From Patescibacteria group bacterium (GTDB lineage: Bacteria; Patescibacteriota; Microgenomatia; UBA1400; PJMF01): a stretch of 46,547 nucleotides of DNA. The notes under the pieces were generated by a model. That model saw only the letters and a program-made list of their open reading frames with translations, was not told the origin of the DNA and did not search any database. The translations under genes were made by a program, and so were the position numbers. The DNA is taken from assembly GCA_049322655.1 (NCBI GenBank), contig JBMORP010000006.1:79863-126409 (forward strand). Direction: 5' to 3'. Positions 11,229 through 44,981 of this stretch are shown here, one piece after another. How positions within the stretch are numbered: the stretch's first letter is position 1; each line of letters opens with the position of its first letter.

Positions 11229-12050
11229 ATGAGTAAAATTTCCACTTTAGAAATCAATCAGCTACAAACTAATCCTTTTCAACCTAGAGAAAAAGTTAAA
11301 AAAGGAGAACTAGACGAGTTGGTTCAATCAATCAAAACCTATGGGGTACTTGAACCATTGGTTGTGGCTGAAACTCCAGCTGGTTACCAGATTATTGCTG
11401 GAGAAAGGCGTTGGCAAGCGGCCAAAGCTGCTGGTTTGACTGAAGTGCCAGTTCATATCAAAAAAACCACACCTCAAGGGATGCTGGAGATGGCTTTGGT
11501 AGAAAATGTCCAAAGAATTAACCTCAACCCGATTGAACGAGCTCAAGCTTTTGTTAGATTGACCAGAGAATTTACTTTAACCTTAAGTCAATTGGCTGAA
11601 AGAATTGGCAAGTCTCCGGCTTATATCAGCAATACAGTTAAGCTTTTAGAACTTCCTGACGCTATTACAGATGGCTTAATTAAAAGAGTTATTACTGAAG
11701 GTCATGCCAGGGCTTTGGCTAGTATTGAAAACGAAGAAGCCATGGTTGAGTGTTACAAGATTATTTTAAAAGAAAAAGCTTCAGTCAGAAGAACTGAAGA
11801 TTTGGCTAGAAGATTTAAAGAAGAGCTACAGAAAAAAGGAGCAACAGCACAAAATAGAACTCAACAAATTAGAGAAATCGATCAACAAGTTAAAACTTGG
11901 GAAAAAGAGCTCAACTCTGTTTTCCACGCTCCCGCCAAATTGAAACTTTCTAGATCAAAAAATCAAACTAGGGTCACAATTACTCTCAAAGGTTCTCCAG
12001 AAAAAACTCAAACAGATTTGGAAAAAATTATGGAGTTGGCGAAGTTATAG
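11229..12050 (+). CDS. parB: ParB/Spo0J chromosome partitioning protein
   Basis: NPFQPRE, LVQSIKTYGVLEPLVV, IIAGERRWQA, ALVENVQRINLNPIE, HTH region, GHARAL. Likely start is ATG 11229. The 3' end overlaps ftsI by 23 nt. No parA in the window. Confidence 0.92.
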   Translation: MSKISTLEINQLQTNPFQPREKVKKGELDELVQSIKTYGVLEPLVVAETPAGYQIIAGERRWQAAKAAGLTEVPVHIKKTTPQGMLEMALVENVQRINLNPIERAQAFVRLTREFTLTLSQLAERIGKSPAYISNTVKLLELPDAITDGLIKRVITEGHARALASIENEEAMVECYKIILKEKASVRRTEDLARRFKEELQKKGATAQNRTQQIREIDQQVKTWEKELNSVFHAPAKLKLSRSKNQTRVTITLKGSPEKTQTDLEKIMELAKL

Positions 12051-40146: not shown

Positions 40147-41640
40147 TTAAAAAGTCGAGAGTCCCAAAGCATAGTTGCTTCTAGTATAAATTCTGACAAA
40201 ACCAATCCCAGGATAGTCAATGACTCCTCTGCCTACAAAGCCAAAATCTGTCAGAGTAGTCAAGATTTTATCTTCTGGATCAGTTAATGTTCTGAGATAA
40301 TCAAAGACTAGCACATATTTTTTATCAAAAGCAGGCTTGAGAGTTTGAGTGAGATTTTCTACATCACTAATGTGTCGTTTACCAGTCACTAAGGTAGGAT
40401 AATCTGGTTCATACCAGCGCCAAGGAGCAAATGGCTCGTCAAAAGACATAATCACGAGCGTTTCAGCTCTGGGAAAAGTAGTGGTAATCTCATGTTTTAA
40501 GGCTCGCCAGTTTTCTCTTTGTAAAGAAGCATCATGCCAATAACTGACAATGCCCCAGAGATTAATAAAAATTAAAGTTAACAACAAATAAGTGGCTAGC
40601 ACAGTTTGTTTTTGGGTCTTGAGCCAAGAAGCAGCTAACATCAAGAAAAATGGAAGTAAAAACAACAGCCGTTTGGGTCGGACAACTGGAACGGCAAAAG
40701 AAATCAGCCAAGCAGTTAAGAGGGGCAGAATTAACAACACTAGTAACTGAAGAGTAGGAGTCATTTTGCTGAAAAGTTTTGGGAATTGGTCAAGATTTTT
40801 TATGAGGTTTTTCCACAATAATTTGGCTGAAACCCAAAAGAGTTTTGCACATAGAAAAGTAATTAATAGCAGTGATAATAAAAATGGCCAGGTCAATTCT
40901 AGATTAAGCACGCCAAAAATAAACTTGAGCGGTACTAAGGCCAATGCCTTTAATTGCGGAATACTGACAACCGTTTCCCAACCAGGAAGCTCGGTTCTGA
41001 GGTTTTGCCCTGCTTGAAGTTGTTGCAAAAACATTGGTAACCAAGGAGCAACAGCCAAACCAATGATGAAAGAACTGTGGAGAGTTTTTTGCCAGCTGTG
41101 TTGCTGCCAAAGAATGACTAGTTGGGCAAATAATAAGAATGGATAAAGATAAGATGAATAAAGACCGGCAACTGAGAGTAAAACAAACTGCCAAGTTTTG
41201 AATGGCTTAGTAACCAGCACCAATGTAGCCAACAACCCCCACATGGCTGGCAAACTATAAGGTCGCAGTTCTTGGGAATAAAAAATATGAAAGGACGAGC
41301 TAGCCAACAGCAAAGCAGTCCAGAGTGCCACTTTGTCAGAAAAAAGCTTTCTGGCTACGTGATAACTAGCCCAAATGGTTACTAAACCCGGAAGTAAAGC
41401 TCCCCAGAGTCTGAGCCACCACTCGCCTTGAGAAAAATATTGGGCGAAATGAACGATGTAATGTAATAAGGGTGGTTGAAAATCAGGCACAATATCAAGT
41501 TGTTGACTGAAAGTTCGACTGCTTTCGATAGCTTGAGCAGCTTCATCTAGCCAAAAAGAACCACTAAGCAAAGGTAAGCGGAGGGCTAAAGCAAACAACA
41601 AAATTAACCACAGGGGGTGAGTAAACACAAATTTTTTCAC
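40147..41640 (-). CDS. GT-C fold (GT39/ArnT-like) membrane glycosyltransferase
   Basis: SFWLDEA, DFQPPLLHY, YSQELRPYS, many TMs. True start is probably GTG 41640. The ORF-track extension to 41964 runs through a terminator and another gene. Confidence 0.82.
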   Translation of the reverse strand: MKKFVFTHPLWLILLFALALRLPLLSGSFWLDEAAQAIESSRTFSQQLDIVPDFQPPLLHYIVHFAQYFSQGEWWLRLWGALLPGLVTIWASYHVARKLFSDKVALWTALLLASSSFHIFYSQELRPYSLPAMWGLLATLVLVTKPFKTWQFVLLSVAGLYSSYLYPFLLFAQLVILWQQHSWQKTLHSSFIIGLAVAPWLPMFLQQLQAGQNLRTELPGWETVVSIPQLKALALVPLKFIFGVLNLELTWPFLLSLLLITFLCAKLFWVSAKLLWKNLIKNLDQFPKLFSKMTPTLQLLVLLILPLLTAWLISFAVPVVRPKRLLFLLPFFLMLAASWLKTQKQTVLATYLLLTLIFINLWGIVSYWHDASLQRENWRALKHEITTTFPRAETLVIMSFDEPFAPWRWYEPDYPTLVTGKRHISDVENLTQTLKPAFDKKYVLVFDYLRTLTDPEDKILTTLTDFGFVGRGVIDYPGIGFVRIYTRSNYALGLSTF

Positions 41641-41677
41641 TTTCCCATCATAACCCGAGACTGGCAGAGAGTGAAGT

Positions 41678-41706
41678 AAAAAAAATCCCTCGCCGTAGCG
41701 AGGGAT
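41678..41706 (-). terminator. Intrinsic terminator after the 100-aa membrane gene
   Basis: AUCCCUCGC-UACG-GCGAGGGAU (cUACGg tetraloop) followed by a U-run. Confidence 0.9.
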
Positions 41707-41723
41707 CTCATTGGTGGCACCAC

Positions 41724-42026
41724 TTAGAACCAGAAAATAGTGCCGGTGAAGATGAACTGGATAACCGCCCAGGCGCTGAGAGGAATAGCGACCAAGCCAG
41801 TCCAGAACCACCAGCCTTTCAGCTGAATGGCACTGAAGAAGCCCAGGAACGCATAGACCGCCCAGAACAGGGGGTATAACATGCTTCCGACAGCCACTGA
41901 ACCGACTGCCAACCCGCCAAAGACGAGCAAACAGTAGTAAAACAAGGGCTTGCCGAATTTCCACATGAAGATGCCAGGAATGACCCAGGCAGCCAGGTGG
42001 ATCGCAATTGCTAACCAGTTAGGCAT
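41724..42026 (-). CDS. 100-aa, about 4-TM hydrophobic protein of unknown function
   Basis: ATG 42026 preceded by SD AGGAGGTGA (42042-42034). MPNWLAIAIH...TGTIFWF. Has its own promoter and terminator. Confidence 0.8.
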   Translation of the reverse strand: MPNWLAIAIHLAAWVIPGIFMWKFGKPLFYYCLLVFGGLAVGSVAVGSMLYPLFWAVYAFLGFFSAIQLKGWWFWTGLVAIPLSAWAVIQFIFTGTIFWF

Positions 42027-42162
42027 GAATTCTTCACCTCCTCTCTTTGTGAGTTTGGTTTTCAGCCACCACTTGGTTTGGCGCGAAGCCAAATAGTGAT
42101 GACTGAGTTGACAAACTCAGTTGTTAAAGAACTTAGTAATAAAATAAATAATTTCTCGAGAG

Positions 42163-42191
42163 AGTATAGCAAAAAATTTGGTTATAGTCAA
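42163..42191 (-). promoter_or_regulatory. sigma70 promoter for the 100-aa gene, TSS about 42156
   Basis: TTGACT (42191-42186), 17-nt spacer, TATACT (42168-42163) with an extended TG. Confidence 0.8.
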
Positions 42192-44498: not shown

Positions 44499-44981
44499 TT
44501 AACGCCGACCTTGACCAAAACGACCCTGGCGTTGATCATGGTCTACTCTGCCCTCAGCCTGCCTGACGGCAATTCTCTTTTCTCTCCTAGCTTGACGTTT
44601 AGCCCGATTGCCTTTGAGTTTTTCCCCAGAATTAAGTGGTAACTGCTTGCATGTAACAGGCTGGTCAGCCAGGTGATGAGTAGCGATCCTGCTATCTGGC
44701 ACAAAAACCACTTCAGCAAAAGTAGTGGTGCCAAAGAGATCAATCATAACCGGTGAGAGATTTCGATATTTGGGGTGATTGGCCAGAAAAATAATGAAGT
44801 CTTGGAATTCTGCTAAAGTCAACGCTTCTCGTTGACCCTCATAACCTTTGAACCGTTGGCCCATAAAACCATTCAATGGCCCAGCGTGTTGCATGTAGGC
44901 TTCAACAATATTGGAACCATTATCGTCATGACGACGAAACTCTAGGTGCATACCTGGGGGAATTTTGATGGTTTCAGCCAA
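44499..44981 (-). CDS. Hypothetical protein, 160 aa, with an Arg-rich C-terminal tail
   Basis: Open frame filling the gap between neighbouring genes. TTG start is uncertain. Confidence 0.6.
   Translation of the reverse strand: MAETIKIPPGMHLEFRRHDDNGSNIVEAYMQHAGPLNGFMGQRFKGYEGQREALTLAEFQDFIIFLANHPKYRNLSPVMIDLFGTTTFAEVVFVPDSRIATHHLADQPVTCKQLPLNSGEKLKGNRAKRQARREKRIAVRQAEGRVDHDQRQGRFGQGRR

Follow-up and report, generated by a model that had tools for sequence, protein, structure and literature searches.

A covarying, strand-specific RNA rod ahead of unrelated small membrane-protein genes in a surface-glycosylation locus of Patescibacteria

The DNA analysed here, called the window below, is a stretch of 46,547 nucleotides from a patescibacterial (CPR) genome of 0.93 Mb. 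Positions 41682-42191 of its minus strand make up a compact transcription unit in which a promoter, a leader, a Shine-Dalgarno (SD) sequence, an ORF and a terminator follow one another (Table 1). The promoter is of the sigma-70 type and is also kept in the relatives L004, L014, and L019; transcription probably starts near position 42156 and the leader is about 130 nt long. With its own promoter and a strong terminator, the unit is monocistronic. The 100-aa product shows about four hydrophobic segments, as judged by eye, and the many synonymous differences between the window and L004 copies indicate a real coding gene under purifying selection. GC3 in this gene reaches 0.71 (GC 0.53), against 0.31-0.36 in four flanking genes and an overall GC content of 37.5% in the window; the bias is retained in the orthologues (0.57-0.67), L014 excepted (0.42).

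Two neighboring genes deserve mention. The PMT_2/GT-C-like gene has a GTG start located a few nucleotides past a promoter-like TTCACT-N17-TATGAT (window 41640-41680, minus strand). The arrangement TTACTTCACT ... GGTTATGATGGGA..GTGAA is common to L004, L019, and L020, and this conservation suggests that the mRNA is leaderless or near-leaderless. Further upstream, a 160-aa protein (window 44499-44981, minus strand) belongs to no Pfam family and ends with a very basic tail rich in Arg, Lys, and Gln; the protein at the equivalent position of the related loci L004 and L014 has about 150 aa. The 160-aa protein may bind nucleic acid.

Table 1. Features of the transcription unit of the 100-aa gene, in window coordinates unless a locus is named, and products encoded downstream of the motif.
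Feature	Position	Strand	Remarks
Promoter TTGACT-N17-(TG)TATACT, sigma-70-type	42163-42191	-	10/12 consensus matches, TG extension
Single-stranded 5' box GUUCUUUAA	42124-42132	-	conserved in most instances
Alternative 5' hairpin ACUGAGUU-UGUC-AACUCAGU	42102-42121	-	MFE only for nascent RNA of at most about 60 nt
P1, 5' strand UGAGUUUG	42112-42119	-	folding and alignment; 8/9 P1 pairs compensatory
J1/2 internal-loop strand UCAAC	42107-42111	-	AAC conserved 12/12, 11/12, 10/12
P2, 5' strand UCAGUCAUCACU	42095-42106	-	12 bp, two conserved U-G wobbles; folding and alignment
Apical P3 hairpin UUUGGC-UUCGC-GCCAAA	42077-42093	-	folding and instance comparison
P2, 3' strand AGUGGUGGCUGA	42062-42073	-	RNAalifold and alignment
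J2/1 internal-loop strand AAAC	42058-42061	-	A-R-A conserved: 11/12 A, R, 12/12 A
P1, 3' strand CAAACUCA, long-range partner	42050-42057	-	folding and alignment
Shine-Dalgarno GGAGGUGA	42034-42041	-	outside conserved helices
Small membrane-protein gene, 100 aa	41724-42026	-	ATG 42026-42024
Intrinsic terminator	41682-41709	-	12-bp stem then U run; only site found by terminator scan
Type-2 hairpin	L003 1788-1885	-
Type-2 hairpin	L007 200-298	+
Type-2 hairpin	L021 1953-2050	-
Gene 1 family, downstream of motif			97-100 aa
Gene 2 family, downstream of motif			100-124 aa
gX family, downstream of motif			83 aa
gY family, downstream of motif			108 aa

The original prediction had described in this leader a 5' hairpin, ACUGAGUU-UGUC-AACUCAGU, a long stem (G)UCAUCACU / AGUGGUGG(C) capped by UUUGGC-UUCGC-GCCAAA, and a perfect complementarity between UGAGUUUG and CAAACUCA. 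All of these are found on the minus strand where they had been placed, and the 5' hairpin and the long-range helix are indeed mutually exclusive, as both use UGAGUU(UG). The folding energy of the 141-nt leader is -40.4 kcal/mol, compared with -26.0 +/- 3.6 for 200 dinucleotide shuffles, none of which equals it (z -4.06). For the 73-nt core, the z-score against shuffled sequence reaches -6.55. Both the minimum free energy (MFE) structure and the centroid correspond to a single nested rod, P1-loop-P2-P3, in which the long-range complementarity forms the basal helix P1. The 3' strand of P1 ends 8 nt upstream of a GGAGG located at 42041-37. An in-frame TTG at 42092, inside P3, would lengthen the ORF to 122 aa across the hairpin (window 41724-42092, minus strand), and an analogous 112-aa call was made by the gene caller for L007 (P0002); from the SD spacing and the conservation of the N-terminus, we favor the ATG at 42026.

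The 100-aa protein is rare. It forms two clusters at 90% identity, has 2 representatives among 1.84 billion proteins, and occurs in one other species among 60 relatives. The leaders of the orthologous genes in L004 (93% amino acid identity) and L014 (45%) align with that of the window, and L004 carries a second, orphan copy of the motif upstream of the gene. From these four gene-1-type leaders, RNAalifold returned the nested rod, and a covariance model (R1) was built. R1 found gene-2-type leaders on which it had not been trained, with scores of 61.9 bits (G002/L003), 46.8 (L007), and 29.6 (L004). Models R2 and R3 were then iterated over 151 relatives, 140 family genomes, and 151 class-level genomes, giving 12 instances in seven genome or contig types.

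These instances share the same nested architecture in all 12 cases: a P1 of 8-9 bp, a 4x3 A-rich internal loop, a P2 of 12 bp, a second A-rich internal loop, and a variable apical P3. The base of P1 is separated by 0-8 nt from the strong SD downstream of it, which is mostly unpaired. In the 12-row alignment, 94.7% of the pair cells hold standard pairs, and compensatory changes are observed in 18 of the 24 pairs (8/9 in P1, 8/12 in P2), values that none of 500 shuffles reach; pairing falls to 28-45% when the partners are slid by 1-3 columns. The alignment was fitted to the covariance model, a procedure that favors the structure. Independently of it, the 12 cores were folded one by one, and each yields the same P1-loop-P2-P3 rod, both as MFE and as centroid, with z-scores from -3.6 to -7.6. 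Covariation among homologous leaders, whose absence would have spoken against the original prediction, is strong. Moreover, the antisense strand scores 23 bits versus 91-97 bits for the sense strand, and two positions of P2 retain U-G pairs, so that the motif is an RNA on the sense strand. Thus, the leader rod is an evolutionarily maintained, strand-specific structured RNA element.

Within this element, the helices vary freely in sequence but are fixed in length, as is their total duplex of 24 bp. P3 differs in length and loop from one instance to another, and a single instance (L020 978-1049) lacks it. The unpaired consensus is N-A-A-C in J1/2 and A-R-A in J2/1 (frequencies in Table 1), to which two adenines of J3/2 and the last GC of the apical loop can be added. 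On the 5' side, a box reading RGUUCUUUAA is found in 8-9 of the 12 instances, 3-24 nt ahead of P1; in five copies, it doubles as an imperfect U-tract for the terminator hairpin of the preceding gene. A role of this box as a promoter -10 element was considered and rejected, since the critical A2 and T6 are missing in several copies and a strong promoter lies upstream in the window, L014, and L019.

The motif has a narrow distribution. R2 and R3 matches occur in four of the five species of one Pacebacteria-like CPR genus and in one species of a sister genus (G089). It is found in 5 of the 140 family genomes, and none of the 149 class-level genomes sampled outside the genus gave a match. Beyond the genus and G089, the sole match in the sampled genomes is a marginal one of 28 bits in G136, from another family of the order. 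There, a shorter hairpin (L022 69-126, plus strand) with the same P1 (GAGUUUGG/CCAAACU) and with AUGAAAA stands directly 5' of AAAGGAGGUG and of a gene for a signal-peptide protein; it may be a minimal or diverged relative. The source genome contains one copy only, a 20.6-bit match at 11310-11393 of the window being a false positive within a ParB-like coding sequence. Degenerate pattern scans of metagenome and genome contigs gave at least five true matches, all identical to the G002 copy, the matches listed otherwise being mostly chance. Samples that contain the locus include SRR9016298, SRR35206414/16, and JGI 3300009868 and 3300008018.

All loci are syntenic: NAD-dependent sugar epimerases/dehydratases are followed by one or several small membrane-protein genes, next by a PMT_2/GT-C-like glycosyltransferase, and last by a GT4. 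In this glycosylation locus, the motif precedes four mutually unrelated families of small membrane proteins (Table 1), for which no Pfam family was found and the ESM Atlas gave nothing usable. It is repeated up to two or three times per locus, ahead of successive cistrons, and five instances directly follow a terminator hairpin with a weak U-tract. In G004 (L019 1245-1493, minus strand), the 83-aa ORF that follows the first copy of the motif crosses the 5' box of the next copy and enters P2 of that copy before a stop is reached; coding sequence and RNA may overlap here, or the protein may end elsewhere. One copy has no ORF after it: this orphan of L004 (2569-2651, plus strand) is followed by no SD-start pair or recognizable ORF. 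About 230 nt of non-coding sequence and then a terminator-like hairpin (2650-2900) come next, with no remnant of any small gene 3' of the copy. Compared with the window, L004 has an insertion of about 550 nt between promoter and gene. The orphan could represent either a decayed cassette or a small RNA.

In G002, L007, and G089, a different hairpin, unrelated to the rod and named type 2 here, is present before the orthologues of the 100-aa gene (Table 1). Its outer helix AGGAUGU/ACAUCCU is conserved and its inner helices covary; its 3' strand contains UCCU and could alternatively pair with the nearby SD. This replacement suggests that selection at this position acts for a stable hairpin beside the SD.

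The original prediction had recognized no known riboswitch class in the leader, and this assessment can be extended. With Rfam 15, the leader matches no family at E <= 10, the 46.5-kb window contains no match that reaches a gathering score, and in seven related loci no match overlaps the motif. Signals that act directly on the SD or on transcription were also compared with the rod. The SD lies outside P1 in 12 of 12 instances, contrary to what a ROSE or fourU RNA thermometer would require, and a purine-rich stretch, then the SD, come after P1 instead of the U-tract of an intrinsic terminator or attenuator. The 4x3 loop, inspected by eye, does not have the tandem G-A layout of a K-turn. The rod belongs to no described RNA class and is an undescribed, narrowly distributed structured-leader motif.

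What function can be proposed for such a motif? The comparative data, with no conserved alternative and no U-tract, support a single constitutive fold, the base of which adjoins an extended SD that is mostly free. We infer, with a probability of roughly 0.4, that this fold is recognized in trans, most likely by the RNA-decay machinery, and is not a self-switching sensor. An RNase Y guide, a 5' protector, or an RNase III site would be candidate roles. Several features favor such a processing or stability module over a sensor: conserved alternative pairing, U-tract, and SD sequestration are all lacking; the helices are free in sequence and fixed in length, and the apical part is dispensable; the element is repeated before each cistron, often after a leaky-looking terminator; and an unrelated hairpin of similar size replaces it in orthologues. 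The source genome encodes RNase III (129.9 bits), RNase Y (PF12072, 92.8 bits, in a 528-aa frame), and RNase J (TIGR00649, 428.7 bits), and RNase E/G was not found in it, which points to a decay system of the Bacillus type. In systems of this type, 5'-proximal hairpins and strong SDs protect mRNAs.

According to this processing model, read-through or primary transcripts would be cut endonucleolytically in the A/U-rich single strand immediately 5' of the hairpin, whose duplex of about 24 bp would guide the cut. RNase Y would make it, as at the intergenic site of S. aureus saePQRS; alternatively, RNase III would nick the hairpin itself. The downstream cistron would then carry a 5'-proximal hairpin and a strong ribosome-binding site, and both would shield it from 5'-to-3' decay by RNase J. 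The yield of each small membrane protein would thereby be set independently of its neighbors. As for RNase III, the two flanking internal loops may spare the hairpin from destruction by this enzyme.

A close likeness is with the RNase Y structure between saeP and saeQ. In S. aureus, cleavage of saePQRS requires a 24-bp double-stranded element; the cut lies between an internal terminator and this element, 6 nt upstream of the latter, and the fragment downstream of it is stabilized (PMC5449607). The CPR rod likewise provides a duplex of about 24 bp (24 consensus pairs) in an intercistronic or leader region, with A/U-rich unpaired sequence upstream in all instances. Many of these follow an internal terminator belonging to the upstream gene; the gene they precede codes for a membrane protein, and the host has RNase Y and RNase J. 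Unlike the sae structure, to which it is unrelated in sequence, the CPR rod shows conservation in its internal loops and in a 5' box placed at variable distance, its window copy sits in a monocistronic leader, and its role in cleavage is predicted from the analogy.

RNase III signals of the T7 R1.1 type are hairpins located between cistrons, just upstream of ribosome-binding sites. The rod resembles them as a hairpin of about two helical turns (20-21 bp for P1 and P2, plus P3), split by an asymmetric internal loop and repeated between cistrons near ribosome-binding sites, in a genome that encodes RNase III. However, it is cellular and not from a phage, it is a candidate substrate, and its 12-bp helix is surrounded by two internal loops, an arrangement reminiscent of a bulge-helix-bulge. 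An RNase III substrate is about two helical turns long; internal loops confine cutting to one strand, and a bulge-helix-bulge can leave the enzyme able to bind but not to cleave (PMC1540722). A third likeness is with mRNA stabilizers. The aprE and ermC leaders, made of a 5' stem-loop and a strong SD, stabilize mRNAs in Gram-positive bacteria. A stable hairpin near the 5' end, an extended SD (AAAGGAGGUGA), and a Bacillus-type RNase J/Y decay system are found here as well. In contrast with these leaders, the window hairpin lies about 35 nt from the predicted primary 5' end and would be 5'-terminal only after processing. Moreover, a stabilizer role leaves the CPR loop nucleotides unexplained.

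It should be noted that some features sit uneasily with the processing or stability module. A plain stabilizer needs neither invariant loop adenines nor fixed helix lengths, both of which fit a specific binding partner, and this could as well be a protein as a ligand. The distance between the 5' box and P1, from 3 to 24 nt, fits poorly with a cut made at the box by a fixed ruler, and in B. subtilis only weak, distributed determinants are described for RNase Y (PMC11780869). The window unit being monocistronic, uncoupling from a neighboring cistron is not needed there, which speaks against the model. Since the loop adenines, the variable box distance, and the monocistronic use are poorly explained, a protein operator and a riboswitch were kept as rivals. 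The broader idea that the rod represents a new ligand- or protein-sensing RNA class of Pacebacteria-like CPR, with the A-rich loops as a binding pocket co-ordinating the translation of a changing set of small membrane proteins tied to a cell-envelope glycosylation locus, is tentative and appears somewhat doubtful.

As a translational operator, the rod would bind an RNA-binding protein on its A-rich internal loops. With P1 abutting the SD, this protein would block, or recruit, the 30S subunit and co-regulate the cistrons of the locus. Loop nucleotides that are invariant while the helices covary, fixed helix lengths, a rod base 0-8 nt from the SD, and the regulon-like presence of the same element ahead of several unrelated genes would all be accounted for. 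However, no RNA-binding protein was identified in the conserved neighborhood, where neighbors without Pfam matches occur, and orthologous genes in other species use an unrelated hairpin. In addition, adenine is the commonest base in these AT-rich leaders, and the conservation of the loops may be partly compositional. An operator of this kind is unlikely.

A hairpin-type riboswitch, in which a small molecule or an ion bound at one or both internal loops would stabilize P1 and alter access to the SD, seems still less probable. It would be in line with a covarying multi-helix leader of no known class that displays conserved unpaired nucleotides and precedes small membrane-protein genes, whose products are possibly transporters or flippase-like subunits. 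Rods in which an internal loop binds the ligand are found in several known riboswitches, such as the translational riboswitches THF-II, associated with folE, and NAD+-I, in its domain 1. The likeness extends to the position of the small hairpin, with its internal loop, directly upstream of the SD. In contrast with THF-II and NAD+-I, the CPR motif has no Rfam match, its P1 excludes the SD, its phylogenetic range is very narrow, and the downstream genes belong to four mutually unrelated families without assignable function. The strongly conserved unpaired positions (>=10/12) number only about seven and are for the most part adenines, within a leader that is AT-rich; the fold amounts to a simple rod, which an unrelated hairpin can replace. 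Finally, no expression platform was found across the instances, whether as a conserved exclusive helix, a terminator, or a pairing that sequesters the SD.

The switch put forward in the original prediction is a different matter. There, temperature, ligand, or transcription kinetics would shift the leader between the 5' hairpin (42121-42102) and the helix 42119-42112/42057-42050. Both mutually exclusive pairings do exist in the window, the 5' hairpin is the MFE structure of the nascent RNA up to about 60 nt, and GAGUU/AACUC is kept in gene-1-type copies. However, the 5' hairpin takes the 5' strand of P1 and the first bases of P2, and at equilibrium the nested fold of the window is favored over the alternative one (-35.0 versus -29.1 kcal/mol). 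The hairpin is thus penalized by 5.9 kcal/mol and accounts for about 6e-5 of the ensemble. In the 12-row alignment, it is paired in 53% of cells, a value equaled by 431 of 500 shuffles, without excess covariation; only P1 and P2 covary. The hairpin is missing in all gene-2-type copies, and neither fold touches the SD. A two-state switch is therefore very improbable. Control of the SD by other pairings was also considered. A cis anti-SD interaction of the 5' box UUCUUU with AAAGGA was rejected, the MFE folds pairing the SD with differing partners or none across instances. For the 30 nt located 5' of P1, duplex energies with the SD region are no better than those of shuffles (mean z -0.38). Hence, the cis-regulatory reading is retained insofar as a genuine structured cis-element lies beside the ribosome-binding site, and abandoned as to the alternative folds.

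Lastly, the element might be thought to act at the DNA level or to be selfish, whether as operator palindrome, attC-like recombination site, or REP/MITE-like repeat: the palindrome, although imperfect, recurs ahead of one small gene cassette after another, their content varies, and the cassette is odd in composition. This reading can hardly be entertained, given the strand asymmetry (23 vs 91-97 bits) and the conserved U-G pairs, a single copy in the source genome, copies confined to one syntenic locus with the same epimerases and glycosyltransferases as flanks, a P1 that differs between instances and lacks the RYYYAAC/GTTRRRY consensus of integron attC sites, and no match in phages or plasmids that would indicate a mobile origin of the cassette.

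Post-transcriptional control in Patescibacteria is almost unexplored, and a perspective published in 2024 mentions riboswitches only as a possible engineering tool (PMC11665869). The finding reported here is that of a covarying, lineage-specific RNA module reused before several unrelated small membrane-protein genes of a surface-glycosylation locus; the narrow range of the motif limits its immediate impact. If the rod binds a protein or a ligand, it would define a class of regulatory RNA that is new and might give CPR genetics a native tool for expression, and as a sensing RNA it would be among the first native RNA regulators defined in Patescibacteria. If it acts as a nuclease guide or protector, it would show by what means a genome of about 0.9 Mb, poor in regulators, adjusts the stoichiometry of tiny membrane proteins, and it would extend to a distant phylum the idea, drawn from S. 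aureus, that a downstream structure guides RNase Y.
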